DNA from: Escherichia phage vB_EcoS-IME253
Length of the DNA stretch: 46,717 bases
Direction: 5' to 3' (one strand)
Sequence record: NC_047810.1
Below are positions 1 to 46,717 of the stretch, piece after piece (position 1 is the stretch's first letter; each line of letters begins with the position of its first letter). The notes under the pieces are model-generated. The model had not been told where the DNA came from. It saw only the letters and a list, made by a program, of their open reading frames with translations, and searched no databases. Both the position numbers and the translations under genes were made by a program.

Positions 1-33
1 TTCATCGAAACGAAACGAAGAGAGAGAAACAAA

Positions 34-234
34 ATGGCTACTATCTACACTGGAAAATTCTACGAGTCACGCAAAACTGGTTATATTTATGAGTTGCAAA
101 TCACTGAGGATGGTTATGTTTTGGTTGATATCGAAGATTGCACTTACGCATTCGAGGTTAGCCCGACCTACAAGGATGACTTGGAAACTGTTAAAAACGC
201 ATTTGGAGAAAAATTTAATGAGGTATCAGAATAA
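34..234 (+). CDS. hypothetical small protein (66 aa)
   Basis: ORF with ATG at 34 after conserved leader catcgaaacgaa (3-14) and purine-rich stretch. Confidence 0.5.
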   Translation: MATIYTGKFYESRKTGYIYELQITEDGYVLVDIEDCTYAFEVSPTYKDDLETVKNAFGEKFNEVSE

Positions 235-455
235 TGGCAATTTTTACATTTGAGCAACAATGGGAAGCATTCAAGGTAATGGCGGCGGAGGAATTATACA
301 ACGCACATTATAAGCGTGATTTATGGGGTGTTGTGAGTTGCCTGGATATGAGCTTCGAAGAAGACTACCTGAACACTGATATCGAAACATGGCGAGACCG
401 TATGGTTGCTGATATCGAAGAGATGAAAAAAGATTGCCCGGAGGATTTTTTATGA
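234..455 (+). CDS. hypothetical small protein (73 aa)
   Basis: ATG overlaps stop of the upstream ORF (TAATG junction); same strand as neighbours. Confidence 0.5.
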   Translation: MAIFTFEQQWEAFKVMAAEELYNAHYKRDLWGVVSCLDMSFEEDYLNTDIETWRDRMVADIEEMKKDCPEDFL

Positions 456-640
456 TTGGCATCTGCGTAAAAACAAATGGCTTCTTTACACTTCTTGAGG
501 ATTATGAAATTAATTTCGATTCAAATGAAATAACAGTGTTAAGCGATGATGGGTGCTATTGGTTCCTTAGTTATCAAGGTGATGGTTATTACGGTTGCAG
601 AGATTCAGGCGGAAAAGAGGTTAGTTTCTTAGTCGAATAG
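434..640 (+). CDS. hypothetical small protein (68 aa)
   Basis: ORF whose TAG stop is the TAG of the ATAGCAC element at 637. Confidence 0.45.
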   Translation: MPGGFFMIGICVKTNGFFTLLEDYEINFDSNEITVLSDDGCYWFLSYQGDGYYGCRDSGGKEVSFLVE

Positions 641-680
641 CACTTTTTGTTAAAAATCAAATCCATGGATGGATTATATT
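637..680 (+). promoter_or_regulatory. palindrome-plus-hexamer element (copy 1)
   Basis: atagcactttttgttaaaa at 637-655; TATATT at 675-680 after 22-nt spacer; next ATG 711. Confidence 0.45.
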
Positions 681-710
681 AAACACATCAACAACGCAGA
701 GGATTGAGAG

Positions 711-836
711 ATGAAAATTGTAGACAGAGAGATGTTTGAGATCGCACAGATGTACGCAAATGATGCTGTAAAAACTGGCTCTGATTATTGCTGGATGTGC
801 GCTAAAGAATACCTGAAAATGGCCTACGGCTTATGA
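711..836 (+). CDS. hypothetical small protein (41 aa)
   Basis: ATG at 711 preceded by gaggattgagag; ends in ATGA overlap with the next ORF; below the ORF-track size cutoff. Confidence 0.35.
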   Translation: MKIVDREMFEIAQMYANDAVKTGSDYCWMCAKEYLKMAYGL

Positions 837-1075
837 TAGTTAAAACCGGACGCGCGGAAGTATGGGCGCACTGTGGGGAGGCTGGCATTCAGGATGATAT
901 TAAACAAATTTCTCGCTTCTTCGACATAAAAGATATAAGCGTAGTCTATGATGGTAAATTCTCATACGTTGATGAGCGCCCAAGAAAGTACGTAAGAGTT
1001 AAGCCAGGTGTAAGCATAGATGTTAACGAATTCCTGAAATCTCAGGGATGCAAATTTAAGATAACTAAGGCATAA
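833..1075 (+). CDS. hypothetical protein (80 aa)
   Basis: ORF translationally coupled to the upstream small ORF. Confidence 0.45.
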   Translation: MIVKTGRAEVWAHCGEAGIQDDIKQISRFFDIKDISVVYDGKFSYVDERPRKYVRVKPGVSIDVNEFLKSQGCKFKITKA

Positions 1076-1078
1076 ATT

Positions 1079-1330
1079 ATGTTGGGATTGGACTTTCAGC
1101 CAGAGCATTACGATTTAGTTCATGGTCAGAGTGGGGTAAAGTTTAGAGCTATACCTATTGCTGACTGGTTTCCTCCTGATTATGTGGATGTGAACGCAAA
1201 AACTAAAGACGGGAAGTGGGTTCAGATTTACTACTCCCCAGCATGCGGAAACCTTTGCATGACTGACCTTGATAAGAAATTAGCAATTAGTGCGGAAGTT
1301 ATCGACTACTGGTTGAAAGAAGTTGAATGA
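1079..1330 (+). CDS. hypothetical protein (83 aa)
   Basis: ORF in co-directional early block. Confidence 0.45.
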   Translation: MLGLDFQPEHYDLVHGQSGVKFRAIPIADWFPPDYVDVNAKTKDGKWVQIYYSPACGNLCMTDLDKKLAISAEVIDYWLKEVE

Positions 1331-1412
1331 AGAGCCTGATACTAGTAGCATTAGTCCCACTGTTTAGCTTTACTATCTTATACTTTATCGTAATGAATTA
1401 AGGAACTTATAA

Positions 1413-2549
1413 ATGGCAACTGCAAAAATTACCAACGAAGAACTGCGCGAAGAACTGGCAAATGGCATGACAAACAAGGCAATCGCAGAGAAGTACGGCA
1501 TGAACATTCGCAACGTTGAATTGCGTCGCAGTAAGCTGGCGAAGAGTGGAGAATTGCACGGAAACCCAGGCATCAAGAAGCTAGTTCCTGACGGTTATAT
1601 GGTTAAGGGTACGTCAACCATGATTGACGCTGATGGTAACGAGAAGATTAGATGGGTCAAAACCTCAATAGACAATGAGCGCCTTGAGGTTTTAATGGAG
1701 CAAGCTCGCGAGGCATTCTGCTCTGAGTTGCCAAAGGCCACTCCATCTGAATCACCAAATGTTAACTTTGATAATGACACACTTGCGATGTATCCAGTTT
1801 TTGATTTGCACATTGGGGCGATGGCCCACAAACATGAGTGTGGCGAAAACTATGATACAGCAACAGCAGAGAATGTTATGAATGGGTTCTTTGACTACGC
1901 TGTAGATAAGGCGCCAAACTCTAAGAATGCTGTATTGGTATTGGGTGGTGATTTCCTACATTACGATTCCCTAGAGGCTAAAACCCCGGCCTCAGGCCAT
2001 ATCTTAGACTCTGACAGTCGTTACGCTAAGATTGTTTATGTCGCAATCCGGTCAGTTCGTCGTGCGATCTCTCGAATGATGGAGAAGCACCAAGTTATTG
2101 ATATTAAAGTAATAAGTGGAAATCACGACGAAGCAGGGATGGTTTGGCTTCGCGCTGCTATTGCTGCATTTTATGAAGACGAGCCTCGCGTAAATGTTGA
2201 TGTTAGCCCAGCTGCAATGATGATGACAAGCTTTGGAACGACGCTTATTGGATACACTCATGGCCACCAAATGCGGAAAGCCGATACTCGACTAACTGTT
2301 ATGGCAACTGATTTTCGTAAGTTATTTGGTCAAAGTGAGTATGTTTACACACATAGTGGCCACTGGCATTCTCAGAAGATTACAGAAACAAACTTGGGAA
2401 TTGATGAGGTTCATGGGCAGCTGGGAAGTCCTGACGCGTACTCAGCAAATGGCGGCTGGCGCTCTCAACGTCAAGCGGCAGTTATTGTCTACCATAAAGA
2501 ATTCGGTGAAGTTGGCCGCTTCATTTGTCGCCCTAAAATGTTTAGCTAA
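1413..2549 (+). CDS. calcineurin-like metallophosphoesterase with N-terminal HTH-like segment
   Basis: Motifs DLHIG, GGDFLHYD, GNHDE, YTHGH in order typical of metallophosphatases; RBS aaggaa before ATG; TAATAG double stop. Confidence 0.6.
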   Translation: MATAKITNEELREELANGMTNKAIAEKYGMNIRNVELRRSKLAKSGELHGNPGIKKLVPDGYMVKGTSTMIDADGNEKIRWVKTSIDNERLEVLMEQAREAFCSELPKATPSESPNVNFDNDTLAMYPVFDLHIGAMAHKHECGENYDTATAENVMNGFFDYAVDKAPNSKNAVLVLGGDFLHYDSLEAKTPASGHILDSDSRYAKIVYVAIRSVRRAISRMMEKHQVIDIKVISGNHDEAGMVWLRAAIAAFYEDEPRVNVDVSPAAMMMTSFGTTLIGYTHGHQMRKADTRLTVMATDFRKLFGQSEYVYTHSGHWHSQKITETNLGIDEVHGQLGSPDAYSANGGWRSQRQAAVIVYHKEFGEVGRFICRPKMFS

Positions 2550-2593
2550 TAGCACTTTTTGCCTAACCCATGCCGTAGAAATGCGGCATAATT
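2549..2593 (+). promoter_or_regulatory. palindrome-plus-hexamer element (copy 2, degenerate)
   Basis: atagcactttttgcctaa after TAA stop; CATAAT 2588-2593; leader catcgaaacgag; next ATG 2634. Confidence 0.4.
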
Positions 2594-2633
2594 ACCACAT
2601 CGAAACGAGATGAACTAAGCGAGGAAACACAAG

Positions 2634-2810
2634 ATGACCAAGATGATTTATTGCACAAAGAACAACTCCAAGACCCTGCCATTTACAGTTAACCAGCCGT
2701 ACAATGCAGAGTACCAGGGTGATGGATATTACAAGATTTACAGCGACGATATGACGTGGATTTTAGCGCCGATTGAAGGTTCACTGGTTGAATTTATTAT
2801 CGCTGACTAG
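2634..2810 (+). CDS. hypothetical small protein (58 aa)
   Basis: ATG 2634 after conserved leader catcgaaacgag and gaggaaacacaag; followed by terminator. Confidence 0.4.
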   Translation: MTKMIYCTKNNSKTLPFTVNQPYNAEYQGDGYYKIYSDDMTWILAPIEGSLVEFIIAD

Positions 2811-10121: not shown

Positions 10122-10151
10122 TACCCCATCGAAACGAACGAGGAAGCAGGA

Positions 10152-22491: not shown

Positions 22492-22524
22492 TATCTCATC
22501 GAAACGAAATGAGAGATTAAAGAA

Positions 22525-26501: not shown

Positions 26502-26529
26502 TAGTGAAAATTAACATGAGGTTTAAAAG

Positions 26530-27000: not shown

Positions 27001-27001
27001 T

Positions 27002-33700: not shown

Positions 33701-34021
33701 GGTGACAATGTTCGTAGTCAATTCATTTTTGACGCAAACAGATTCGCTATCAGTAACGGCATTGGTTCCGGCTCCGGTCAGTGGCAACTCCCCTTCGTTG
33801 TCGAGAATGGAAACGTAATCATCAAGAGTGCAGTTATCGGCGATGGCTCAATCAGTAACGCGAAGATTGGTAACTTTATTCAGTCTAATGACTGGGGTAC
33901 AAATTCAGGCTGGAGGCTAGATAAGGATGATGGATTGACGCTTAGGGGTTCCGATCGTGGCAAGATGAGAGTCCTGGACCGGAATGGAGTGGTTAGGGTA
34001 AAATTAGGATACTTGGGTTAA
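30704..34021 (+). CDS. tail tip / host specificity protein J (central tail fiber)
   Basis: About 1100 aa downstream of M-L-K-I; ATG 30704 with gagg (an upstream ATG at 30665 is also possible). Confidence 0.8.
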   Translation: MAEEIKIYGAKGGSQKQHQPVEQEDNLISLNKVKVLLAVADGEVDPNFSLKDLYLADVPVQNQDGSYNYEGVRAEFRAGTQYQDYIAGLDGANSEIQASREIKNDTPYIIAVNNTQLSAIRVKLFWPRLVKQESNGDLNGTTCEYAIDLSVNGGAYQEYTRGVANGKTTTGYDRSIRVNLPAEFDSALVRIRKITPDSTSSTLVNGMQITTYQEVIDAKFRYPLTALVYVEFGSDLFPNGIPTISIKKRWKLIQVPTNYNPETRTYSGTWNGLFKMAWSNNPAWVLYDLVTNRRYGLDQRELGVEIDKWGLYEAAQFCDQMVPDGKGGLEPRYLCDMVVQNKVEAYTLIRDICSIFRGLTFYDGEKIGIVVDKPRNPSYIFTNDNVVNGLFSRTFASDKSLYTTANVQFDDVENNYQQDVEPVFELEATRRFGFNPVDLTAIGCTRRSEANRRGRWLLKTNLRSETISFTTGLEGMIPMIGEVIAVNDAAWSSNYQLNLSGRIESVQGLQVFTPFKVDAAPGDRILLNKPDGSPEARTIASVSEDGRTINLNTAFSFVAQPDTVFAIDKDNLALQQYVVTGIQKADTDGSDSFQYTITAVEYDPNKYDEIDYGVNIVDRPTSVVEPDRLSPPENLTVSSYSKVVQGLSVETMVIGWDKAPYAKTYNVQWRKENGNWINVPRTASTEVDIEGIYAGIYDVRVRSVSDTENVSAWSGIVTVSLTGKIGRPSAPTVITASTDEVFGIRVKWGFPEGSGDTAYTELQQVPDNGDGTYNPDNASLLTLLPYPAYEYWHTPIQPGKVIWYRARLIDRIGNTSDWSNFARGMSTDDANIINDFIKVDIEGSEGFKYLEQNAIQKNQDIQNQAEAIIENALANDGDVRRMTKENGKRKAEYVQAVNLIADETQARVEALTALKAQIDDEVVASITEVQTALATETEARTTADTTLSARLGENEAALNQKLDAFSNATSTGVQYGISLGLKYNGQTYSSGMSMELVGTGDNVRSQFIFDANRFAISNGIGSGSGQWQLPFVVENGNVIIKSAVIGDGSISNAKIGNFIQSNDWGTNSGWRLDKDDGLTLRGSDRGKMRVLDRNGVVRVKLGYLG

Positions 34022-34030
34022 TAAATTATT

Positions 34031-34060
34031 GGCGGGTAAATCCCGCCTAAGGTTTTATTT
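34031..34060 (+). terminator. terminator-like hairpin after J
   Basis: hairpin ggcggg-taaa-tcccgcc then ggttttattt. Confidence 0.35.
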
Positions 34061-34062
34061 GT

Positions 34063-34434
34063 ATGGCTGGTTTGTATGGTTGGGAGATGTACGATTCTGC
34101 GGGGCGGCTTGTAGCTGACAATAGCAGCATAATGAGCAGGAGGCTATTCACTTATAGCGTGCCACTGATAAGGGCTTTATCTGCAAACATACCATGGGAA
34201 GTCTCATTTAATGTTAACTTCTCAAATGGAACGCCTTATGCGCATTGCAATACCAGAACAGGGGTGGTGGTCCCTGCATCTACTAACTGGTATCCAGTAT
34301 CACCTGATATAATAATATCTGGAAATGCAGTTACACTCAGGTATACAAACAGGCATGTTTCCTATCCGGACGATCTTGGGTACATACTTGCAGTTGGTGG
34401 TGTTGATGTTCACTTAGGAGTTTATAATAAATGA
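34063..34434 (+). CDS. hypothetical tail-associated protein (123 aa)
   Basis: ORF immediately downstream of J. Confidence 0.4.
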   Translation: MAGLYGWEMYDSAGRLVADNSSIMSRRLFTYSVPLIRALSANIPWEVSFNVNFSNGTPYAHCNTRTGVVVPASTNWYPVSPDIIISGNAVTLRYTNRHVSYPDDLGYILAVGGVDVHLGVYNK

Positions 34435-35228
34435 GTGATTATGGTGTTGAACTAATAAATGACTATGGTTTAAAGGTTGCTGACGCAGAGGATGTAAATT
34501 ACGTACTAAGAAGTTCTGGTACATTTAATGATTCAAATTTCTACTCATATGCAAACTCCACATCTGCAATTAGCCTCATGACCACAGGAATGAATTCGCC
34601 TCTTCTATTTCTAAAGATGAACGAAAGTAGGTCAAGGATAAGCCAGAAGCCTGGAGTTAACAAAATATCACCTGATTTTGTTAACCCAAATACCACAATA
34701 ACAAAGACAAGCATAGACCTATTCAAGTGGTGGAACATACCGCTAGGAACTGTAGAGTATTACATATTTGACAAGTGGATCCCGCCAGAAAGAAGTGATT
34801 ATGGAATGCAGATATTTAATGAATCTGGTTCTATAATCTTTGATTCTGGCTGGTACTTCCTCAAACTTAGGGATGTGCTATGGCTTGATCCAAGTTATCC
34901 AAACCATTCAGATCAGGAAGGTGGTAGTAACTGGACTAACGTCGGGAATATTGTCAACTCCGCGAACGTATCAAACTCAGCATTATCAATGCCTGTTGGT
35001 AGGGGGTGGGTTGAAACATCATTGCAGGGTGGGTACTACTATAATGAATGCTGTCACCTTGACTCATCCGGTAATCTATTTATATCCATAATACCTACAG
35101 GTATATACCTTGATGTTTCACCAACTGGCGGCTGGGTTGGCAATATGAGGACGCAAGTTATGGTTTGCGACACCTCGAGGCTGCCTCTTAATTACAATCC
35201 AGTTGAGATAAGAAAGGAAAACAAATAA
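34431..35228 (+). CDS. candidate receptor-binding protein (265 aa)
   Basis: Position downstream of J and convergent with a lipoprotein gene; no motif confirmation. Confidence 0.35.
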   Translation: MSDYGVELINDYGLKVADAEDVNYVLRSSGTFNDSNFYSYANSTSAISLMTTGMNSPLLFLKMNESRSRISQKPGVNKISPDFVNPNTTITKTSIDLFKWWNIPLGTVEYYIFDKWIPPERSDYGMQIFNESGSIIFDSGWYFLKLRDVLWLDPSYPNHSDQEGGSNWTNVGNIVNSANVSNSALSMPVGRGWVETSLQGGYYYNECCHLDSSGNLFISIIPTGIYLDVSPTGGWVGNMRTQVMVCDTSRLPLNYNPVEIRKENK

Positions 35229-35232
35229 AAAT

Positions 35233-35256
35233 AAGGCCCTTAATGGGCCTTCTTGT
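35233..35256. terminator. bidirectional terminator between convergent RBP candidate and lipoprotein genes
   Basis: A-rich run, hairpin aggccc-ttaat-gggcct, T-rich run. Confidence 0.5.
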
Positions 35257-35425
35257 TAAAACAATATCCAGCTGGTAAAACCGAATAAAGATTTTGATTT
35301 ACCTCTCCATTGCTGTATTCACAACCTCTAATTGTAACTGAGTAGTCACTGATAAGAACTATAGTTCTTTCACCGCCTGAACAACCAGCTAAAATCATTG
35401 CAGTGATAACGATTAATTTTTTCAT
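35240..35425 (-). CDS. small lipoprotein (candidate superinfection-exclusion protein)
   Basis: Signal peptide with lipobox LAGCSG; 61 aa; convergent to RBP candidate. Confidence 0.5.
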   Translation of the reverse strand: MKKLIVITAMILAGCSGGERTIVLISDYSVTIRGCEYSNGEVNQNLYSVLPAGYCFNKKAH

Positions 35426-35426
35426 C

Positions 35427-35531
35427 TTAGAACCCTTTAAAGTTGCTAGCCAGCATCAGAAGCCATACGAAGAAACCAGTAGCTGCTACACCGAAGATTG
35501 CAGAGATTACGTTAGTAGTTAAGTTAGTCAT
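35427..35531 (-). CDS. small hydrophobic peptide (34 aa, single TMD)
   Basis: Hand-translated; RBS aaggaa; directly downstream of the reverse-oriented element and leader. Confidence 0.35.
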   Translation of the reverse strand: MTNLTTNVISAIFGVAATGFFVWLLMLASNFKGF

Positions 35532-35571
35532 TTTGTATTCCTTAGTAAGTGTGTTTCGTTTCGATGGAAAG

Positions 35572-35615
35572 ATAATACCGCATCCTTGCGATAAGTGTTT
35601 AGCAATTAGTGCTAT
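35572..35615 (-). promoter_or_regulatory. palindrome-plus-hexamer element (copy 11, minus orientation)
   Basis: rc atagcactaattgctaaa at 35598-35615; rc TATTAT 35572-35577; rc leader catcgaaacgaa; drives 35427..35531 and lipoprotein gene. Confidence 0.5.
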
Positions 35616-35884
35616 TAGTGAATATCCTCACAGCCAGGAATGGACTTAACATTGTAATGCCGATAAGCGAATATCAAGTTAAGAGCCTGCTCGACCGTGC
35701 ATTTAAGGGCGCCAGAGATAATAAATGAAGACTCAGTGATGTGATTTATTAACTCATTTCTGACAGGGTCGTCATCTGCTAGTAACTCTGCGCGCTTAAC
35801 AAAAAGAGCGTTGTTTACCAGGATTGTCACAACCTTTTCATTGAGCTCTTTCTTCGCTTTTGCAATCTCTTTCTCGTAGTTCAT
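35615..35884 (-). CDS. hypothetical protein (89 aa)
   Basis: ORF ending in TAATAG inside the reverse-oriented element. Confidence 0.4.
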   Translation of the reverse strand: MNYEKEIAKAKKELNEKVVTILVNNALFVKRAELLADDDPVRNELINHITESSFIISGALKCTVEQALNLIFAYRHYNVKSIPGCEDIH

Positions 35885-36026
35885 CTTATACCGCCTTGTT
35901 TTCGATTTGCATTACGCTATTAACTGACATCATAACATTCCGATTCTGCTGCTGAGTAGTGGTTACTACATGCTGCATTTTATTGCAGTCACTTTAAATG
36001 ACCACATCTTATTGTGGTCATTAGTG

Positions 36027-36716
36027 CTACTTATCTTTAAGTAGCAACTTGATATCAATTCCTAGATTATTCTCAATCAATCCAGTCAGTGCACCTACCT
36101 TTTCCTTAAGTGCGAAGCACTGTGTTTCATACTTGAATCTCAACTCCATCTCATCAGAGCGACTTGACCAGCACTGCCGAGCCTCGCACGCTAGCTCATC
36201 AATCTTCTTGTCAAGTTCCTTATCTGACAGGGTGATTTCAGTAATTCGCTGCTCAGCTACGATTCTCTGGATCAAGTGAGCATTCTGCGCTTGCAGGTAT
36301 CCATTCTTCATTCTTTCCTCTTTAAGTTCATCAATGCTTACCATCTGACTGATTACTTCCGCTTGCTTGTTGATGGTGCTTTGCATTTCTTTAAGCTTAG
36401 CAAGCACTGCGCGACGAACGAACTTTGATTCTCTCATCCCAATCAAAAGCATCTGTTCCATATTGAGCACTGGTGAGTTGATTGACTTTCTATAACCTCC
36501 TCTACCCTCACTCTTGATTACGAAACTTTCGTAGTCAAACTCAAACCCTTCAAGCTCATCCTCTATTCTCTCAACAAAGTCATTGTGTCGAACATTGGAC
36601 TCCCCAGCGATCAACCTCGCTGGGTTGATAACTTCATTTAAAAACTGATAACTATTCATTTTTACGTCTTCATTAAGTAATGCTAAGTTCATTTTCGTCT
36701 CTCTTTTGTTTTTCAT
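36027..36716 (-). CDS. putative regulatory protein (antirepressor-like N-terminal domain, coiled-coil C-terminus); start may be 36692
   Basis: First minus-strand gene downstream of reverse-oriented element 36797-36840; domain call is weak. Confidence 0.4.
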   Translation of the reverse strand: MKNKRETKMNLALLNEDVKMNSYQFLNEVINPARLIAGESNVRHNDFVERIEDELEGFEFDYESFVIKSEGRGGYRKSINSPVLNMEQMLLIGMRESKFVRRAVLAKLKEMQSTINKQAEVISQMVSIDELKEERMKNGYLQAQNAHLIQRIVAEQRITEITLSDKELDKKIDELACEARQCWSSRSDEMELRFKYETQCFALKEKVGALTGLIENNLGIDIKLLLKDK

Positions 36717-36796
36717 TCCTAAGATTTGAGGAGTTAACTAAGTTCTTTTCCTCAATTTGAGGAGGAGTTGACAGCACCATTGCCGCCACGCGCCTA

Positions 36797-36840
36797 AATA
36801 TACCTAAAGATAGCCAGTTGTCTTTAGCAAATCGTGCTAT
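36797..36840 (-). promoter_or_regulatory. palindrome-plus-hexamer element (copy 12, minus orientation)
   Basis: rc atagcacgatttgctaaa at 36823-36840; rc TATATT 36797-36802 (22-nt spacer). Confidence 0.45.
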
Positions 36841-36940
36841 TTATCGACAATTTCACCATAAATCACAGTTACACGTAACCGATGTAACTCGATGTATACA
36901 ATCTCATCCGCGGGAAATGATATACGCGCTGTTACGCCAA

Positions 36941-37030
36941 TTTACGCATTGGTTACATTAAAATATCTATATATATCAACCTTTTACTCTTATTATTATT
37001 ATTATATATATTACTGTGTATATCATGTAA
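36941..37030. repeat. AT-rich 90-bp repeat, copy B
   Basis: tttacgcattggttacattaaaatatctatatatatcaacc...ttattattattattatatatat; matches copy A. Confidence 0.6.
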
Positions 37031-37327
37031 CTACTTCTATAGAGTGTTCCGGTTATAATTTTAATATCATGTGGATTTATACAGTATTGCGCGGCAGCTA
37101 TACCAATGCACCCTCAGCGAGAAACGGCATACACGATATACACGATGTTTACATTGAGCTATGGCTGGCTTGAGATGCCAAAAAGCGTAACTAGTGCCAA
37201 TGCCTACACGAAATTACAAAGATTCACGCGTAAACTTAAATCAACGATTGGCAAAACCAATTGGACTGGTTACGGTGCTGAATATATAGTTACCTCATCG
37301 AAAGCAATCAACCAGAGAGATATATAA

Positions 37328-37522
37328 ATGACCTACTACATTATCAAAGAGAAAAACAACGCACTGTTCGGCGACTGCTACTTTGGAGGAGAGGCCGGTT
37401 ACACCACGGATAAGAACGAAGCAGACAGATTCGAGACCAAAGGAGAAGCCCGCGATGTACTGACCGGTTACTTCACTGAAGAAGATTTGAAGTCTGTTAA
37501 AGTAGTTAAGGTCAAGGGGTGA
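37328..37522 (+). CDS. hypothetical protein (64 aa)
   Basis: ATG after leader tatagttacctcatcgaaagcaatcaaccagagag. Confidence 0.45.
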   Translation: MTYYIIKEKNNALFGDCYFGGEAGYTTDKNEADRFETKGEARDVLTGYFTEEDLKSVKVVKVKG

Positions 37523-37525
37523 GTT

Positions 37526-38491
37526 ATGAGCTTTAAAGTTTTTACGCGAGAGGAGCTAAGCAACGAGGCTTACCACGCTGAAACTGAACACATCTCAGGT
37601 AGCTCGCTTGTCGAGATTATCCAGGGATCACCAGCCAAGTGGAAGTTTAAGCAGCGCAACAATGATAGCAAGGCGCTTAAGTTCGGCACGCTAAGCCACA
37701 CGATGATTTTAGAGCAAGATGTATTCGAAAAAGAATACCTTCGCGCAACAGACCTTGACTCGATTGAAGGCTTAATTACAAGTCAGTCTGGATTATCATC
37801 AGCACTTAAAAAAGTTGGTGTAGCTGGCACGTCAGGTAAGGGGTATAGCGAGCTTATAGAGATGATGTATCGATCTGGTGAGGATTGGCCCGTTGGATGG
37901 TTAATTGAGCAGCAGGAGAGCGCCCAGGCGCTTGCGGATGGTAAGGAGCTAGTTAGCGCAGTAGACTATGACAAGGTTGTAGCGATGCGTGAGGTCCTCT
38001 GCAACATTCCGGCGTATAATGCGATCGTGAACAGTAAGACGGCGCAGAAAGAGTTATCGATCTTCGGTGAGATTCTAGGAGTCGGCGTTAAGATTCGAAT
38101 TGACCACGTTGATGTTGTTGATGGAGCAGTTCGGATCACAGATTACAAAACGACAGCAGACGCAAGCCCGGAAGGATTCGGTAAGTCAGCATTCAACCAC
38201 GGATACCTTGCAAAAATGGCACTTCAGCGTGATCTGTTTGTGAAAGCATTCAACGAGAAGCGCAAGGTTGTTGTGGGGTTGCTGGCACAGGAGAAGGTGG
38301 AGCCATACTTACCAATGCTGTACACCCTAACTGACGAACAGCTTCGCATTGGTCGTCTCCAGTATCTTGAGGCACTTGCCACTTACAAGAAGTGCAAGGA
38401 GCTAGATATCTGGCCTGGGTACTCGAACGGCATAACAGAGCAAGAACTACTAGTCCCTGAGTGGGCTCTAAAGCAATACAAAGAAATCTAA
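37526..38491 (+). CDS. PD-(D/E)XK family exonuclease (recombination exonuclease)
   Basis: IRIDHVD...ITDYKT nuclease-type motif; strong RBS aaggggtg; upstream of annealing protein gene. Confidence 0.55.
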   Translation: MSFKVFTREELSNEAYHAETEHISGSSLVEIIQGSPAKWKFKQRNNDSKALKFGTLSHTMILEQDVFEKEYLRATDLDSIEGLITSQSGLSSALKKVGVAGTSGKGYSELIEMMYRSGEDWPVGWLIEQQESAQALADGKELVSAVDYDKVVAMREVLCNIPAYNAIVNSKTAQKELSIFGEILGVGVKIRIDHVDVVDGAVRITDYKTTADASPEGFGKSAFNHGYLAKMALQRDLFVKAFNEKRKVVVGLLAQEKVEPYLPMLYTLTDEQLRIGRLQYLEALATYKKCKELDIWPGYSNGITEQELLVPEWALKQYKEI

Positions 38492-38535
38492 ACAGCACGA
38501 ATTGCTAAAACAAAACGGGATGACTTAGGTATAGT
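38492..38535 (+). promoter_or_regulatory. palindrome-plus-hexamer element (copy 13, variant)
   Basis: acagcacgaattgctaaa after TAA of exonuclease gene; TATAGT 38530-38535; next ATG 38565. Confidence 0.45.
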
Positions 38536-38564
38536 TATCCAATCAACAACGAACGAGGTTAAAG

Positions 38565-39215
38565 ATGCAAATTTCAGAATTATGCAAATCAATTTTAAAA
38601 GCGCTTCACACTGCTAAATCGCTATTTGCGAAGGCTGAAAAGTCTAAGCAGAACTCTCACTTAAAGAATAAATACGCTACCTTAGAAGACGTTTTGGCGG
38701 CTGTTGAGCCTGGTTTATATGAGTGTGGTTTGGTGATGTTCCAGAGTGTGATTGATGACGAACAAACAAATCGCATGAAGGTCGAGACAAAGCTGTTTCA
38801 TGTTGAATCTGGAGAGTGGGTAAGCTTCTTAATGATAGTCCCAATCAGCAAGAATGATGCACAAGGTTACGGATCAGCTTTAACATACGCTCGTCGCTAC
38901 GGTATCACAGCTGCCTTGGGTCTTAGCCAGGCTGATGATGACGGAAATCTTGCAGCCAAAGGCGTTAAGGATTTCAAGCGAGAGCTAGAGAAATGCAATA
39001 CTCTTGATGAACTTCGTAACGTCTGGAAAGAGGCTAAGCAGTCACTTGATGCGGCTGGATGGAAGGTTTTTGAACCTCACATTATCGAGCGCAAGGCAGA
39101 GATTGAGGCAAATGCGATGACTGGCTTCAACCCAGCAACACCAAAGAAAGTTGCAGAAAAAAGTAGTCCTGAAGAAAAGATTAAAGTAGAATCACAACAA
39201 ATCGACACATTCTAA
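38565..39215 (+). CDS. single-strand annealing protein (Erf-like, putative)
   Basis: 216 aa, TYARRYGI-type motif, position between exonuclease and SSB. Confidence 0.45.
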   Translation: MQISELCKSILKALHTAKSLFAKAEKSKQNSHLKNKYATLEDVLAAVEPGLYECGLVMFQSVIDDEQTNRMKVETKLFHVESGEWVSFLMIVPISKNDAQGYGSALTYARRYGITAALGLSQADDDGNLAAKGVKDFKRELEKCNTLDELRNVWKEAKQSLDAAGWKVFEPHIIERKAEIEANAMTGFNPATPKKVAEKSSPEEKIKVESQQIDTF

Positions 39216-39258
39216 ATTTAACGGGGCTGCGGCCCCAACAAACATAGAGAGATAAAGC

Positions 39259-39681
<423 letters not shown>

Positions 39682-39686
39682 AGATA

Positions 39687-39710
39687 AGGCCCCTTTCGGG
39701 GCCTTTTTTA
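39687..39710. terminator. terminator between convergent SSB and tailspike genes
   Basis: hairpin aggcccc-tttc-ggggcct followed by T6. Confidence 0.6.
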
Positions 39711-42614
39711 TTAAATCAATTTAACAGATCTTAACTGATTACCAGAAGTTGTAGATATTGTTGTTGAACTAACTAACGTCCCAGACAATGCAAACGAAAT
39801 AGCTCCAGTCGATGAGGTTCCAGTAGCAAACCTTTGAGGTGAATCGCTTATAACACTTATCTTATTTGCTGTAAAAGTATTAGTGCCAGAAAAACCAGTA
39901 GTTACAACCAAATCCTGATTGAGTCTAAATCCAAATCCAACAGTAACAGAGGTTGACTCTTTCACAGGAATGTTAAGCCCATTTAGACGCACACCTGAGA
40001 TATCAAAGAAATCACAAGAAGAAAGAAGCGCCATTCTTGAAATGCCTGTTGTTATTGGTAGCGTACTCTGAGACTGTCCATTGAAGTTACATACAAATCT
40101 TGTGTTAATGAAACTAATATCATGATCAACAGAGCCATCAACCGGAGAGGTCGTACCAGATGTTGACTTAACAATACCGCCAACAAATTTTATTGCCACA
40201 GGTCCATTTGGGTCTGAACCATAGTAAGCTCTAAGCCTTTCAACATTACAATTAACCATGTAATAGCTCCCCCTCTGGTTTGTCTCAAATATAGGGTATC
40301 TCGAGCTTCCGACAGGTGAAGAGAGATCATATATAGAAACGTTAGGGTTATGAAGACTGTTAGCACCCATGAAAACGATATTATTTGATAAAATCCCCTT
40401 TATACTTATGTTGGTAGTAAACCTTCCAGTCAATGAGCTTTCAGAATTTGTCATGTCCGAGAATGGCCCCTTAAACCTTGAAAAATCAATAGTAAGTCCC
40501 AAGCTAGCAGATGAAGGGAAAGCCGACATGTTAACATCTGATATTGAAACGTCAGAAGGGAAAAGCAGCGCACCATCTCTACTTGAGTAGAATAAATTAC
40601 CAGGATGAGAACTGTAGTTTCCTGACTTGAAGTTAAGGCCCTTAATCCTAACTGAGTTAAACAGAGTGCTCTTTATTGGTGAGCCAGCTACAGGTCCATT
40701 TCCTTCATAAGAAATTCCATTTATCAAACCCGTCCCGGTCAGGCTAGTACTTCTTGTGCCTGTAAAAGTAATGTTATCCATGTAAAGGTTTCCGTCAAAG
40801 AAACCTCCAGCGTCCGCCCTTGTTGTTATGATATTCCCATTCGTATATCTAGACGCATTAAATGCACTATCCCTTATATGCAAATCGCCAAGACCAGTAA
40901 CAACAACACCACGGGCACCGATATTGCAGTTTTCAATCTTGAGGTAGTTATGAAAAGGCATGTGAAAGTCAATTCTACTTAGATCACAATTTTCAAAAGT
41001 TACGTTTGCGCAGTTGTTACTACCATTTGCGCCCCATCCTTTACCGTTAACCCTTGCGTTCATAATCCTTACGTTCATTGATTCACCTATTGATAAGGCG
41101 TATGAGTAAAGCTCACCAGAAGAATCTCTTGCGTCTGCAACAGACTCGGCAAAAAGACCATCAACTGTGATATCATATGAGTTAGCTATTGCCAACCTTG
41201 TATCGCTAAACACTTGCGTTATCGGCTTGTTAATAAAGGAAATATCTTTTATTAACAACCTTGTAGAATTATTAACATAAACTATCTGATACCGTGTCGA
41301 AAGACTTTCATCTATAGTTAAACCCTTGATTTCCTGAGTTGTCTTGTTTATCTTCAAGGCTCTAACTGATGTAACATTATTTCCAAGATCATACTTCAGT
41401 GAGTTCTCCAGATAACCCCTATTGTAAACCCTATTGAGTTCAATTCTTTTCTGAACAGAATCCCTATATGTGTACATGTCCTGATTTGTATAAAAAACAA
41501 TAAAACAACCATCAAGGTCACGATTTTCAGATATAGAGTCGAACAAATTACTTCCAGCAGCTCTTGATTCATTAGACATGGAGTTAAAAGATGAAACAAC
41601 AGATGACGAAGCGTCATAAGTTGTAGGTTGCCCGTTGGTTATAGTTATCTGCCCGGTCCATGAGGATGATGGTTTTATAACAGAGCCTGTAAAATCAGCA
41701 CTCAATGAACCAATATCAATATAATCGGAACCAGAAACAAGAAAAACACCATCATTCTGCTTTATCTTTAGATTTTTGGATTTTGCGTAGTTTATCGCTC
41801 GATTTATACCTGAAATATCATTAGTAATACCATCACCAACACAACCAAAATCATAGAAACTAACATAACCTTTAGATCCTAGTTCAGACCACGAAGAATC
41901 ACCAATCCCACCAGAAGAATATGGTGTCGAGTTTTCCGGGACTGTCTTAGGTAGATCTCCCATCCATACGTATGACTTTGGCTTACCGGAGTCAAGCCAT
42001 ATCATTTGTTGATTTCTTGACTCTATTACACCTCCGGACTCAAATGATGAAATTAAGGCACCAGATAATGAAATTAAGGCACCAGATAATGATTCCGCAT
42101 AACCCCGTGCAGCTTGTTCTGATGACATTGCTAATCCAGCACTCGCTGCAGCAGAAGCCATATCACCTGCTACCTGGGCAGCATTCTGCGCAACCTGTGA
42201 TGACATGTTTACAACATCGCCATACTGATTGTTAACCTGTGTTACTTTAGATTCAAAATCATTAAAGTCAAAGTTGTTAAATGCATCAACTGCATCAGCA
42301 ACCTCAGTTTCACGTGACTGATAGTAACGAAGAGTCTCAGCAACATCTTGAGCTAATCCCTGAACGGTAATCCCATCATGAGCAAGAATAGCGTAACCAG
42401 TTCCAGCAGGAACAGTTTCAGAATTAGGGTTATAAACATTAATCTGCGTATCGCTGATGATCTCAGAGATGGTGTAAATTTTTACTGGCTCAGTTTTAAA
42501 TACAATGGTGGCACCTACGCGAATCAGTGTAAGCGGTGCTTTCCATGTTGTCCCGACACCAGTCACCTCGCCGTTTGCAGCTAATGATGCGGTTCCCAAG
42601 TCATAAATTGCCAT
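39711..42614 (-). CDS. tailspike / lateral tail fibre protein (beta-helix type, putative)
   Basis: About 970 aa, Ser/Thr/Asn/Gly-rich; N-terminal MAIYDLGTASLAANGEVTGVGTTW resembles conserved tail-fibre anchor domains; ATG 42614 inferred. Confidence 0.6.
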   Translation of the reverse strand: MAIYDLGTASLAANGEVTGVGTTWKAPLTLIRVGATIVFKTEPVKIYTISEIISDTQINVYNPNSETVPAGTGYAILAHDGITVQGLAQDVAETLRYYQSRETEVADAVDAFNNFDFNDFESKVTQVNNQYGDVVNMSSQVAQNAAQVAGDMASAAASAGLAMSSEQAARGYAESLSGALISLSGALISSFESGGVIESRNQQMIWLDSGKPKSYVWMGDLPKTVPENSTPYSSGGIGDSSWSELGSKGYVSFYDFGCVGDGITNDISGINRAINYAKSKNLKIKQNDGVFLVSGSDYIDIGSLSADFTGSVIKPSSSWTGQITITNGQPTTYDASSSVVSSFNSMSNESRAAGSNLFDSISENRDLDGCFIVFYTNQDMYTYRDSVQKRIELNRVYNRGYLENSLKYDLGNNVTSVRALKINKTTQEIKGLTIDESLSTRYQIVYVNNSTRLLIKDISFINKPITQVFSDTRLAIANSYDITVDGLFAESVADARDSSGELYSYALSIGESMNVRIMNARVNGKGWGANGSNNCANVTFENCDLSRIDFHMPFHNYLKIENCNIGARGVVVTGLGDLHIRDSAFNASRYTNGNIITTRADAGGFFDGNLYMDNITFTGTRSTSLTGTGLINGISYEGNGPVAGSPIKSTLFNSVRIKGLNFKSGNYSSHPGNLFYSSRDGALLFPSDVSISDVNMSAFPSSASLGLTIDFSRFKGPFSDMTNSESSLTGRFTTNISIKGILSNNIVFMGANSLHNPNVSIYDLSSPVGSSRYPIFETNQRGSYYMVNCNVERLRAYYGSDPNGPVAIKFVGGIVKSTSGTTSPVDGSVDHDISFINTRFVCNFNGQSQSTLPITTGISRMALLSSCDFFDISGVRLNGLNIPVKESTSVTVGFGFRLNQDLVVTTGFSGTNTFTANKISVISDSPQRFATGTSSTGAISFALSGTLVSSTTISTTSGNQLRSVKLI
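42047..42088 (-). repeat. perfect 21-bp tandem duplication inside tailspike gene
   Basis: atgaaattaaggcaccagata x2 on plus strand, encoding SLSGALI-SLSGALI in frame. Confidence 0.8.
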
Positions 42615-42637
42615 TGTGTAAAGTCTCCATTTGTAAA

Positions 42638-42655
42638 ATAGCACGAATTGCTAAG
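42638..42655 (+). promoter_or_regulatory. solo palindrome copy (no -10-like hexamer at expected spacing); candidate operator
   Basis: atagcacgaattgctaag about 30 bp upstream of the tailspike start codon (minus strand); expected hexamer position reads GGCATA. Confidence 0.35.
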
Positions 42656-42680
42656 TTGGATTGTAGCATCTTTCAGGCAT

Positions 42681-42702
42681 AAAAAAACCTCCCGAGGGAG
42701 GT
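42681..42702 (-). terminator. rho-independent terminator for primase gene (minus strand)
   Basis: A7 then hairpin cctccc-gag-ggagg on plus strand, i.e. hairpin plus T7 on minus. Confidence 0.55.
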
Positions 42703-43625
42703 TAGTTTAGCAAGTCTTTGGCTTTGTACACTTTCTTGCGTATTCCTGTTTTGAATGACTTCCCGTCATTAGGTATTACCACATCAACATTGCGATCATC
42801 AGCAACAGCGAGAATATCGATATCGCAATCGCGACAAGCAACTCTAAACTTTCGTGATTTGTCGCGGTGCATAACCATCTCCATGTTGTAACAGGAGAAA
42901 GCAACAAAAACCTCACGACACCCAGTAGCAATGTGAACACGTACGCCATCAATAAAATTATCAACAACATAAGTGTAGCCATCAACCTGCCTAGAACCAA
43001 TGACAGCAACAGAATCACGAGTGTAATCACCAGCTAGGAATTTAACATTTGAATCTCCATCAATAAACATTAAGTTGCAGAACTCATCACCAAGACCATC
43101 CTCGTAAACCATCGAGCATGGTACGGCATGAATCATTGAGCCATCCTTAGCTATGCCAACATCGAATCCATCATCAAGATAAATACCTTCATATGTTGTG
43201 AGTGGGCTTGATTCAACTCTTACAGTCCGATCCATGACTTCAAGAACTTTTTCATGATCTACCTGTGCGCCCATTTTGTAACGCTGAGTCCTTGATGCTT
43301 GCTTATTTGCCTTATTAACCACCTCTACAGGGATAAGGTTTAACCACTCAACGAGAACATCTATACATTCACTGAATGACTCCCCCCTCATCTTTTGTAA
43401 CCACAGAATTCCATCGCCTGAGCCACACTGGTTGCAGATAATGCCGCCATCACCTTCTTCGCTAACCTTGTTAGTCCATCGTGCTCGGTCGTTTCCTCCA
43501 CAATAAATACATGGCTGATGCTTTTTGGTCTGGAAGAATTTTGGGTCTGCGCCGCAGATATTGATAAGTGCCTTATCCCACAGGCCGCGCATTCTTGGTA
43601 AAACCTCTTTCTTATCGTAGTGCAT
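42702..43625 (-). CDS. DNA primase-like protein (zinc-binding N-terminus)
   Basis: CIYCGG...CNQCG cysteine pairs near N-terminus; adjacent to helicase module. Confidence 0.4.
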   Translation of the reverse strand: MHYDKKEVLPRMRGLWDKALINICGADPKFFQTKKHQPCIYCGGNDRARWTNKVSEEGDGGIICNQCGSGDGILWLQKMRGESFSECIDVLVEWLNLIPVEVVNKANKQASRTQRYKMGAQVDHEKVLEVMDRTVRVESSPLTTYEGIYLDDGFDVGIAKDGSMIHAVPCSMVYEDGLGDEFCNLMFIDGDSNVKFLAGDYTRDSVAVIGSRQVDGYTYVVDNFIDGVRVHIATGCREVFVAFSCYNMEMVMHRDKSRKFRVACRDCDIDILAVADDRNVDVVIPNDGKSFKTGIRKKVYKAKDLLN

Positions 43626-43683
43626 ATCAATCTATCTCTGAACAAATAAAAAAGGATGCACCGATTATGGCACATCCAATTCC

Positions 43684-44157
43684 TTACTCTTTAGCTTTTC
43701 GTGCTGCCTCATTAGCGGCCTTGATCTTTCTCCATGAACGACACTCTGGTTTGGTTGCTAACTCGGACTCAGTAACCACACGCAGCATGTGACGCTTCTT
43801 GCACCGTAATGTCAGCGGCTTTCCGTTGCCGTCGAATTGCAGGTCTGGTCGGCAGAATGTAGCGCGAAAACCTTCTCCATTTCGTTTGTAGTAGTTGTGC
43901 GATAGCTGAGCACCACGTGCAGAAATCATACCACGCTTAAACCATTCCTCTACAGCCTGTGGTGTTACCTTTAACTGCTTTGCGATATTCGCCTTTGTGC
44001 CGAAGAAATCAAGAACAATCTCCAGTCGCGCGCGCAACCCTGCCCTTACTTCATCTTTCAAAACGTAGTAACCTGAAGGTCGTTTTCGTTGTTTTTTGTC
44101 TTCAGTGCGGACAGTTCCGTTATTACCGTTGATTGTTCTCTTGTCGACTGTATTCAT
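43684..44157 (-). CDS. HTH DNA-binding protein (putative transcriptional regulator)
   Basis: Basic N-terminus and HTH-like IAKQLKVTPQAVEEWFKRG; sits in divergent region. Confidence 0.4.
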   Translation of the reverse strand: MNTVDKRTINGNNGTVRTEDKKQRKRPSGYYVLKDEVRAGLRARLEIVLDFFGTKANIAKQLKVTPQAVEEWFKRGMISARGAQLSHNYYKRNGEGFRATFCRPDLQFDGNGKPLTLRCKKRHMLRVVTESELATKPECRSWRKIKAANEAARKAKE

Positions 44158-44169
44158 TTCATTACCTCA

Positions 44170-44213
44170 ATAGCATTTTTTGTTAAAAGTCATTCTGATT
44201 TGATGGTAGTATT
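44170..44213 (+). promoter_or_regulatory. palindrome-plus-hexamer element (copy 15, variant)
   Basis: atagcattttttgttaaaa; TAGTAT 44207-44212 (21-nt spacer); upstream of helicase ATG 44259 in divergent region. Confidence 0.4.
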
Positions 44214-44258
44214 GTACTCAATTAAACGCTACAAGACAATTTTTATAGGAATTTAGAT

Positions 44259-46253
44259 ATGTTGCCTATCGAGAAGCTGGTTGCTAACTTTGATAAAGAA
44301 AGAATCAAACAGATTCAGAAGGATTACCAGTTTGGGGAGATAACCCCATACGAGTTCCAATGCGTAACATTTGATGCTATCGGAAAGGCTATTGGGAAGT
44401 ATGAGGCCCCATTTATAGCAGACCTTTCAGTTTCTGCTGGTAAGACAATCATTCTTGCCATGATTGGTAAGCGCATGGAGCAATTGGGATTGCCTTATAT
44501 GGTTCTTTCTCGCCAGTCAGAGATAATCAGCCAGAACTCAGAGGAGCTTCGTAATTTCGGCATCCGTAATAGCGTCTATTGCGCTGGCCTTAACGTTAAA
44601 TCGGTTTACTACCCAACCATAGTTGCCAGTGAGGGTACGGCAGCCAACGGCTTGTTTAAGGGGCTTGGTGACTATGTTCCTGCCGTTATAGCTATAGATG
44701 AGTGTCACATGGTGGACCACATGGATATTGTGGAAGCTGAAGAGAACGAGGAAACATTTGAGCAAATGAGCACAAAGAAAGGCGAGATGGTTTTTAAGGG
44801 TGGCGTAAACACAGGATTGCTTGGCACTGGTCGTGCGCAGTACACGCTAATTATCACCGAGATGAAACGTCGTTGTCGTGAGAGGTATGGTCGTGAGCTT
44901 CGTATATTCGGTCTAACTGGTAGCCCATACCGTAACAACGATCATATTGTCGTTAGCAACCCAAACATCCGCGGATTCTGGCGTAAGACGGTAATTCAGG
45001 TGCCAACCAATTACCTGGTTGATTTGGGCTTCGTGGTTCCAACTGTTTACGGTGAGGTTGGTGATCTGGGTTACGACCTTAGCGAATTTGCGCCAGACGG
45101 TAGTGATGGTGTTAAAGACTTTGGCAAGAAAGAAATGGATGCAATGCAGGAAAAGATTCATCAAAACCAGTCCATGACGCAAAAGATTATGCAATTTGCC
45201 GCAAAGTTCATGGAGACTCGCAACGCTGCGCTTGTGACATGTGCCGGTAAACGTCATTGTGAGGAGGCAGCAGCAGCGCTTCCTGAGGGTGTAACCTGGG
45301 CTATAGTAACTGACTCTACTGGTGAGAAAAAGCGTAGGGAGATTCTTTCTGACGCAGTTGAAGGTAAGTATAAATTCATATTTCAGATCGGTTGTCTCAC
45401 AACTGGCGTGAACGTCCCGCCATGGGATACATCAATCATTCTGCGCAAAGTTGGTAGTATCACGCTTCTTATTCAGCTTTTGGGGCGAGGCATGCGAATA
45501 CTTAAGAAGAAACATAAGGAAATGGGGATGGTCAAGGATGATCACGTGGTGCTAGACTTTGCTGGCACTCTTGATGACATGGCAGAATTATACTTTGATC
45601 CAATCATAGAGGAGGTGCAGGATCAGAAATTCAAGTCCTCTCGTAAAGTTGGGGATAAGTCAAGAGTATGTCAGGCCTGTGGATATAAAAACTCCCCACT
45701 TGCTCGTCGTTGCAATAACGTAATTGACGGAAAGCGTTGTGATAATTTTTTTACATTTCGCTTGTGTGAAGATATAGAGGACCCGCAGACAAAATCTATT
45801 ATTAAGAAAGGTTGTGGTGAGAAGAATGATATTGCCGCTAAAAACTGTCGGTGCTGCGGTGAGATGTTAATAGACCCGAATGCAAAGTTATCTGGGAAAA
45901 TGTATCGTAAAGGAGACTGGTTGCGAGTCTACGACTTTAAGATTGGATTAACAAAGAATCAATCAGGGATTGTTGCCTCATACGAGGTCATGGCTCATAG
46001 TGGTGATAGGTTCCGGGCCTATGAGACGTTTTTTCCAGAGTCAGACCATCGCGTTTGCTCTGTAAGATGGAAAGCATTTTGCTCAACTCACATAGAGAAC
46101 AGGACTGAGGCTTTTAGAATTGGCAGGTTGCGTAATGCTAAGATGATTATGACTAATGCTCACCTTTTTCGTGCGCCATTAAGGATTACGCACAGAAAAA
46201 ACCAGAAAGGTCAGGATATTATCGCCAATAAATCTTTTACTATGGAGGATTGA
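44259..46253 (+). CDS. SF2 DNA helicase with C-terminal zinc-ribbon repeats
   Basis: Walker A SAGKT and DECH box; C-terminal CxxC pairs (CQACGY, CRCCGEM). Confidence 0.7.
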   Translation: MLPIEKLVANFDKERIKQIQKDYQFGEITPYEFQCVTFDAIGKAIGKYEAPFIADLSVSAGKTIILAMIGKRMEQLGLPYMVLSRQSEIISQNSEELRNFGIRNSVYCAGLNVKSVYYPTIVASEGTAANGLFKGLGDYVPAVIAIDECHMVDHMDIVEAEENEETFEQMSTKKGEMVFKGGVNTGLLGTGRAQYTLIITEMKRRCRERYGRELRIFGLTGSPYRNNDHIVVSNPNIRGFWRKTVIQVPTNYLVDLGFVVPTVYGEVGDLGYDLSEFAPDGSDGVKDFGKKEMDAMQEKIHQNQSMTQKIMQFAAKFMETRNAALVTCAGKRHCEEAAAALPEGVTWAIVTDSTGEKKRREILSDAVEGKYKFIFQIGCLTTGVNVPPWDTSIILRKVGSITLLIQLLGRGMRILKKKHKEMGMVKDDHVVLDFAGTLDDMAELYFDPIIEEVQDQKFKSSRKVGDKSRVCQACGYKNSPLARRCNNVIDGKRCDNFFTFRLCEDIEDPQTKSIIKKGCGEKNDIAAKNCRCCGEMLIDPNAKLSGKMYRKGDWLRVYDFKIGLTKNQSGIVASYEVMAHSGDRFRAYETFFPESDHRVCSVRWKAFCSTHIENRTEAFRIGRLRNAKMIMTNAHLFRAPLRITHRKNQKGQDIIANKSFTMED

Positions 46254-46254: not shown

Positions 46255-46674
46255 ATGAATATTACAGACAAAGTTGATTACATTGAGTTTTACCCTGGCC
46301 CGGTTAAGTCATGCCCTAAAGAGGATGATGAACAAATCTTTTGCTCTGATTGGGTTAAGTATAACTACCCAGAGATGGTATTTTTCCACTGCGTGAATGA
46401 GGGTAAGAAAACCATTGGTCAAGCAAGAAAAGATCAGGCTAAGGGTCTCCTTAAGGGAGTGTCAGACTGTATGTTTCTTATACCTGAATCTATCCGAGGC
46501 AAATACCCTTTCGGAGCTATAGAGCTAAAGAGAGCAGGAAAAACGCAGGCAAGCCCAGTCAGTGAGGAGCAGAAAGCTTTCCTTAAAAGCGTAATGGAAT
46601 CAGGTGGTTTCTCCGCAGTCGCCTACGGCAGGGAAGGGTTCCTTGCAGCATTCAAAGAAATGATTTCAAAATAG
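46255..46674 (+). CDS. VRR-NUC domain nuclease
   Basis: D...ELK...Q..F pattern and size (139 aa) typical of VRR-NUC; stop is TAG of the element at 46671. Confidence 0.55.
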   Translation: MNITDKVDYIEFYPGPVKSCPKEDDEQIFCSDWVKYNYPEMVFFHCVNEGKKTIGQARKDQAKGLLKGVSDCMFLIPESIRGKYPFGAIELKRAGKTQASPVSEEQKAFLKSVMESGGFSAVAYGREGFLAAFKEMISK

Positions 46675-46714
46675 CACGAATTGCTAAATGAGATTTCAAA
46701 AGATGGGGTATAGT
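46671..46714 (+). promoter_or_regulatory. palindrome-plus-hexamer element (copy 16, split across window ends)
   Basis: atagcacgaattgctaaa; TATAGT 46709-46714; conserved leader continues at window start (catcgaaacgaa 3-14); next ATG 34. Confidence 0.5.
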
Positions 46715-46717
46715 TAC

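Follow-up and report, generated by a model that had tools for sequence, protein, structure and literature searches.

Does the record of Escherichia phage vB_EcoS-IME253 (NC_047810.1) begin and end at the physical termini of a DNA molecule, or has a complete genome been opened at an arbitrary point, within an element that it carries in many copies? The question is raised by the outermost bases of the window, by which we mean the whole stretch of 46,717 bp that was analysed. Its last 47 nt (46671-46717) read ATAGCACGAATTGCTAA-ATGAGATTTCAAAAGATGGGG-TATAGTTAC, with TATAGTTAC at 46709-46717, and window 1-14 reads TTCATCGAAACGAA; the first ATG, at 34, opens the ORF 34-234. The original prediction had described a palindrome at the end of the window, a conserved leader at its start and this ATG as parts of one broken unit, and all three are present. 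The parts of this unit, its flanking genes and two intact units are as follows.

46255-46674, + strand: VRR-NUC nuclease gene, the rtp54 homologue, which immediately precedes the broken unit
46671-46687, + strand: operator-like repeat ATAGCACGAATTGCTAA, 17 bp, with the palindrome TAGCA-N5-TGCTA at 46672-46686; nearly invariant in 11 relatives
46688-46708, + strand: spacer, 21 bp, variable between relatives and without a -35 hexamer 16-18 bp from the -10 box
46709-46714, + strand: predicted -10 hexamer TATAGT (TATTAT in some relatives)
46715-46717, + strand: TAC, the last three bases of the window and first half of the discriminator (-10 to +1); the record break follows
1-33, + strand: rest of the discriminator (TTC), predicted +1, leader ATCGAAACGAAAC, then a purine-rich ribosome-binding region
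34-234, + strand: first gene of the transcription unit, 66 aa, the rtp55 homologue (phrog_6031)
10078-10154, + strand: intact paralogous unit, for comparison
22448-22527, + strand: intact paralogous unit, for comparison

Joined end to start, the window restores the order of operator palindrome, 21-bp spacer, -10 box TATAGT, leader CATCGAAACGAA and ATG at 34. The joined ends fit the pattern of the 23-nt unit core, TATAGTTAYNYCATCGAAACGAA, with 0 mismatches; elsewhere in the window this pattern has three copies only, at 10116, 22486 and 37285 (the last with 2 mismatches), and none was found in 100 dinucleotide-preserving shuffles of the window. A circular scan likewise recovers a complete unit at 46671, in which the repeat and the TATAGTTA box stand 21 bp apart, as they do in the units at 10078 and 22448, so that the joined ends do reproduce these two intact units, as had been claimed. 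The joining of the window ends into an intact repeat unit is far beyond chance. Against the unit consensus ATAGCAC-N4-TGCTAA the junction copy has 0 mismatches; it is intergenic, lies with transcription and has its start codon 80 nt from the unit start. The VRR-NUC stop codon TAG (46672-46674) falls inside an operator half-site (aaaaTAGCAC), and several other units likewise begin at the stop codon of the upstream gene. Reading the box as the -10 hexamer puts the palindrome centre at -42 and the predicted transcription start at the A of ATCGAAAC at window position 4, so that the record is broken between -4 and -3.

The same join restores a 9-bp hairpin (46702-46717 + 1-6, -10.2 kcal/mol), the 3′ arm of which is split by the break; the 5′ arm, 46702-46710, starts with the last 7 nt of the spacer. 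In the window, ZL19 and ACG-M12 the hairpin persists, in part through G-U pairs. It is broken in JeanPiccard and AugustePiccard, and covariation across the relatives does not lead us to claim a conserved RNA structure.

Independent genomes show what lies at this position when it is not broken. An artificial junction query, consisting of the last 1,200 and the first 1,200 bases of the window, was searched against the phage collection. The 2.4-kb query aligns in a single piece with phage ZL19 (99.9%, record 38439-40838) and with phage Rtp (96.0%, record 36642-39046), and at least 80% of it is covered by 27 records. At the level of single bases, the join aligns to Rtp with no gaps, nearby differences being substitutions, including TT for CC at window 1-2, and ZL19 equals the joined window sequence at all 105 aligned bases. 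Eleven relatives, belonging to several genera, have the unit that is broken here in uninterrupted form, flanked by the VRR-NUC gene and the rtp55 homologue. These relatives conserve the repeat, the box and the CATCGAAACGAAAC of the leader, which is invariant in all 12 aligned sequences, while the spacer and the discriminator vary. The join thus rebuilds the contiguous sequence of independent genomes, with zero bases lost or duplicated.

The remainder of the window is equally continuous. In a BLAST comparison with the whole Rtp record, window 3-7608 corresponds to Rtp 37844-46215 and window 7613-46717 to Rtp 1-37841, which places the end of the Rtp record (46215|1) at window 7608|7613, inside continuous window sequence. 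The end of the ZL19 record (window 7737) and the opening of the MSK record (window 16762|16767) are internal in the same way, and the non-coding window 7530-7906 aligns in one piece across the end-to-start join of Rtp and likewise of ZL19. Because these record ends are internal to the window, the records of the window, Rtp, ZL19 and MSK are different rotations of one map, and this, taken together with the colinearity with the whole Rtp map, identifies a complete genome opened at an arbitrary point. Arbitrary openings are familiar among relatives, as near-identical 44,219-bp vB_EcoS genomes have records opened at many different positions and on either strand, and one of these records retains an overlap of 127 bp from its circular assembly. 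An exact terminal direct repeat or terminal overlap was looked for in the window, and none was found. The window holds, complete and without redundancy, the arbitrarily opened genome of a virulent, Rtp-like coliphage of the Drexlerviridae (Braunvirinae); this part of the original prediction is borne out by the contiguity of the junction in relatives and by colinearity round the whole Rtp circle.

Two other accounts of the window ends have to be weighed at this point. The window could be an incomplete fragment, with ends that resemble the unit only through the frequency of the unit in the genome; some 15 copies make contigs that end in repeats conceivable. However, ZL19 carries the 1.2-kb flanks of both sides as one contiguous stretch at 99.9%, the colinear Rtp map has no arc that the window lacks, and 46,717 bp falls in the family range of 43-50 kb, so that we give this account hardly any credence. 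It is also very improbable that the window ends are true physical ends, produced by a packaging cut or a cos site at the promoter unit. The break does lie 3 nt before the predicted transcription start, and a second record, that of vB_EcoS-2862I (MK907272.1), is opened only 14 nt from the window's opening position. Yet the site is internal in the records of Rtp, ZL19, T1 and SU57, and the places to which a relative's packaging start and the T1 left end correspond are elsewhere, at about window 7,700 (the PhageTerm start of MSK) and window 7.6-8.2 kb (synteny with T1), respectively. The vB_EcoS-2862I record, moreover, carries a 127-bp exact terminal overlap that is typical of circular assembly and was left by the assembler, and record openings are not enriched at the locus: at most 8 of 93 records could have their opening inside the 2.4-kb junction query (101 places in 93 records), where chance alone would give about 5. 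The nearness of the two openings is probably coincidence. That a random break should hit a unit at all has a chance of only ∼3% (∼1.2 kb of 46.7 kb), which makes the position of the break a mild coincidence.

A closing junction is evidence of circular assembly only: it would be seen alike with headful packaging, with direct terminal repeats that had collapsed and with cos ends that had been joined. Any argument that the phage packages by the headful has to come from homology, beginning with the packaging genes.

12339-12845, + strand: small terminase subunit, P22 gp3 family (PF16677; phrog_606), 53% identical to T1 ST54
12865-14430, + strand: large terminase subunit (Terminase_6C; phrog_38), 56% identical to T1 ST53

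The small subunit matches PF16677 with 49.4 bits against a cutoff of 29.4. Two features looked for in a pac-headful phage are thus present, a small terminase of the P22 gp3 / Sf6 type and a large terminase homologous to that of T1. T1 and TLS are reported to be pac-headful phages from restriction analysis of virion DNA, which gives submolar pac fragments and shifted ends; their packaging series run to 3-4 headfuls, hence only partial permutation, and in TLS the ends shift by ∼1 kb per headful (PMC11447400). Restriction digests of SU57 are consistent with headful packaging and permutation (PMC7718038), as is a PhageTerm analysis of the Rtp-like phage MSK, with a start at 36,862 (PMC8421802). 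Headful packaging in the window's phage is supported by its P22 gp3-type small terminase and by the 56% and 53% identity of its terminase subunits to those of T1, and not by the junction, with which the original prediction had called it consistent.

One further account accepts the genome as complete. Its virion ends would be fixed and would carry an exact direct terminal repeat, of the kind seen in T7 or T5, that collapsed in assembly, in which case the circle would be an artefact and headful packaging could not be read from it. The closing junction alone fits both cases, and the record holds no terminal repeat, as expected after trimming in either. What makes fixed ends very improbable are the membership of the small terminase in the P22 gp3 headful family, the 53-56% identity of both terminase subunits to those of T1, the submolar pac fragments and shifted ends of T1 and TLS virion DNA (PMC11447400), and the permutation indicated by the SU57 digests and by PhageTerm in MSK (PMC7718038, PMC8421802).

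Circular permutation, the other half of the claim about packaging, is reported for relatives, but in a more restricted form than had been supposed. Since packaging starts at pac and proceeds for only 3-4 headfuls, the ends of T1-type virion DNA are clustered downstream of pac and not fully arbitrary, and permutation in the window's phage should accordingly be limited rather than random. T1 resembles the window in its homologous terminases and in the equivalent position of a large non-coding region, within which the T1 left end lies; its record annotates a 2.8-kb repeat_region (1..2800) at that left end. The redundancy of ∼2.8 kb in T1 and the shift of ∼1 kb per headful in TLS are figures of those phages and not of the window's. 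If its capsid holds the same amount of DNA as that of T1 (48.8 + 2.8 kb), redundancy in the window's phage would be ∼4-5 kb.

The non-coding region equivalent to that of T1 is the candidate site at which packaging would begin.

7555-8184, no strand: large non-coding region, 630 bp, between diverging gene clusters; candidate pac / packaging start

The left end of T1 is syntenic with this region, and the Rtp (window 7608|7613) and ZL19 (window 7737) records are opened inside it. The PhageTerm start of MSK at 36,862, which in scaled coordinates had looked close to the window break, was rejected as a match to the break and maps to ∼window 7,700, again within the region. It is rich in repeats, with three TTGATTGTTGCG-like 23-mers, two exact copies of TGTATACTGTGTAACG together with an inverted copy at 8027-8041, and the AT-rich ATATCTATATATA. 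On the strength of its synteny with the T1 left end and of the PhageTerm result for one relative, window 7555-8184 is likely to be the pac and/or origin region. The physical ends of the first headful are expected near 7.7 kb, i.e. ∼7.7 kb from the window break.

Taken as a whole, the observations are best explained, with a probability of about 0.9, by a complete Rtp-like genome from a headful family that was opened by chance inside a standard promoter unit. Cuts by the headful mechanism, initiated at pac, would produce virion DNA from concatemers that is terminally redundant and partly circularly permuted; reads of such permuted DNA would assemble into a circle, and the record would then have been opened at an arbitrary base. 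This base would happen to lie inside one of ∼15 promoter units, downstream of the -10 box and just ahead of the predicted transcription start. Earlier descriptions of the Drexlerviridae include circular permutation as well as the repeated element, and in this respect the finding in the window is ordinary.

Comparison with the closest relatives places the window firmly within the Rtp-like Drexlerviridae (Braunvirinae), as judged by high nucleotide identity, full colinearity with the type genome and a T1-type order of modules (small early genes, terminases, head, tail, recombination, lateral fibre, primase, regulator, helicase, lysis). Gene order in Rtp (NC_007603, Rtpvirus) and ZL19 (OM258170) equals that of the window round the whole circle. 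Rtp is 96-98% identical to the window over 30.6-33.9 kb and 36.9-46.7 kb, with 98.1% identity in the lateral tail fibre, whereas ZL19 is 99.2% identical over 10.4-26.5 kb and 99.9% identical across the junction. The window differs from both in being a mosaic of the two, in carrying another set of small genes at ∼7.9-9.7 kb and in a record opening that lies ∼7.6 kb from theirs. Three segments (7906-9702, 26459-27001 and 33929-36870) have little or no nucleotide match to Rtp; as read from the alignments, these are swapped small-gene modules and insertions, and with best matches that alternate between ZL19 and Rtp they give the genome its mosaic character. No record identical to the window was found in the phage collection. 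A tRNA-Arg gene (anticodon TCT) lies at window 11634-11711, as in other Rtp-like phages.

The unit in which the record was opened belongs to a family of ∼15 oriented copies in the window and ∼20 each in T1, Rtp and ZL19. Its palindrome, TAGCA-N5-TGCTA, is over-represented in the window, with 26 strand-wise matches against 1.45 expected. Each unit consists of ATAGCAC-N4-TGCTAA, 21 bp (22 in one copy), a TAnnnT box (TATAGT, TATAAT or TATTAT), six bases and a leader, which mostly begins ATCGAAACGA or ATCAACAACG. The distance of 21 bp from repeat to box is fixed in the ∼15 window units and in T1, Rtp and ZL19, and all boxes are TAnnnT. Copies are oriented with transcription, and in most units 72-89 nt separate the start codon from the beginning of the unit. 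At 37285-37307 there is a copy of TATAGTTACCTCATCGAAAGCAA with 2 mismatches, and the scans detected no operator repeat upstream of it.

The repeat itself is known. It is the 21-nt intergenic repeat of the Drexlerviridae, described in TLS with the consensus aaATAGCACnnnTTGnTAAAA, for which the TLS authors considered the roles of stoperator, enhancer site and UP element without deciding between them (PMC11447400). The repeat at window 46671-46687 fits this consensus, and consensus, orientation with transcription and a distance of ∼76 nt to start codons are all as in the window (PMC11447400); the window copies are indistinguishable from those of the family. The present analysis adds to the described repeat that a -10 box follows it at a fixed 21 bp, that its centre falls at -42 and that a conserved leader begins at +1. 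In the Rtp paper of 2006, Wietzorrek et al. reportedly described 10 inverted repeats and proposed them as binding sites of Rtp52.

The window encodes a protein of this type, which is the candidate binder of the repeat.

43684-44157, - strand: Rtp52 / T1 gp23-type helix-turn-helix regulator, candidate repeat binder (phrog_2856, annotated transcriptional regulator)

The protein is 52% identical to T1 ST23 (gp23); it has a weak match to P22_Cro, below the Pfam cutoff, and a search of PDB sequences returned a marginal Cro match. Between the regulator gene (- strand) and the helicase gene (+ strand) lies a divergent control region, 44158-44258, with a sigma-70-like promoter for the regulator at 44239-44211 (- strand). 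A repeat copy at 44171-44185, oriented toward the helicase gene, lies downstream of the predicted start of the regulator, in its leader. The presence of a palindrome copy downstream of the regulator's own predicted start suggests that the gene is autoregulated.

How such a unit might work can be approached from its geometry. A scan for canonical sigma-70 promoters showed no enrichment (35 sites against 37.4 expected) and gave a weak call on only one of the six + strand units in range, from which it follows that the units do not have a -35 hexamer at normal spacing. In class II activator-dependent sigma-70 promoters the activator site is centred near -41.5, as with CRP at -41.5 and lambda cI at OR2/PRM, centred at -42. 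The units share with these a dimer-type palindrome at -42 over the missing -35 place and a good -10 box, although the likeness is one of layout only and the centre at -42 is derived from the predicted -10 box only. A -10 box is present in the unit with no -35 hexamer at 16-18 bp; given the palindrome centre at -42, the good -10 box and the fixed geometry, a class II activator-dependent layout is the most likely reading. The units would then be host sigma-70 promoters that depend on, or are controlled by, an Rtp52/gp23-type protein bound at the repeat, each built from an operator of 17 bp with its centre at -42, a spacer of 21 bp that lacks a -35 element and often contains a hairpin, a -10 box, and a leader from +1. 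A broad literature search on T1-like phages found no transcription starts or binding data for Drexlerviridae units, and the literature yielded no experimental test of the unit's function.

The hairpins invite a different interpretation. Many spacers contain, or many boxes are spanned by, GC-rich hairpins (mean z -1.8 against shuffles), of which the following are examples.

2570-2593, 9260-9283, 10103-10128, 38518-38540 and 46702-46717 + 1-6: unit hairpins

In the T1 record, rho-independent terminators are annotated exactly in some spacers (38973-39001, 39998-40024 and 41980-42007 in T1 coordinates). On this evidence the units may also end upstream transcripts, so that terminator and promoter overlap. 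It has to be asked whether the broken element serves as a terminator or roadblock and not as an activator-dependent promoter, with a hairpin and T-rich tail that stop upstream transcripts and a palindrome-bound regulator that represses. Besides the hairpins and the T1 annotations, two atypical copies would suit such an element: the one at 42638, which has no -10 box and lies beside a terminator, and the one at 44171-44185, whose place downstream of the regulator's sigma-70-like promoter fits autorepression. Against it, a TAnnnT box at a fixed 21 bp, orientation with transcription and a fixed distance to the start codon are features of promoters, the tails are poor U-tracts, and promoter and terminator roles are in any case not exclusive. 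We regard a terminator or roadblock in place of a promoter as unlikely, while repression or roadblock is plausible at some copies, namely 42638, which is without a -10 box, and 44171, which lies inside the regulator's leader. The former, a perfect repeat copy at 42638-42654 without a downstream -10 box, points against the lateral tail fibre gene, ∼10 nt from the start of that gene and beside the strong terminator hairpin 42686-42703, and it may serve a purpose other than that of the remaining copies.

Returning to the activator-dependent promoter, we propose tentatively, and short of calling it probable, that all T1-like phages use the unit as their standard middle/late promoter: it would have no -35 element, would be switched on by the Rtp52/gp23 protein at the -42 palindrome, and would carry its leader at +1 and a terminator-like hairpin in the spacer.

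For practical purposes, the window sequence is usable as a complete genome, and its ends are not to be taken as physical termini. For comparison with relatives it is best re-opened near 7.6-7.7 kb, following the T1/Rtp convention, and the split unit is to be annotated as a single feature across the origin. The unit itself, a family-wide combination of operator, putative promoter and leader with a presumed regulator, is already in the literature. If the unit is indeed the standard middle/late promoter of T1-like phages, one small protein would time most phage transcription.
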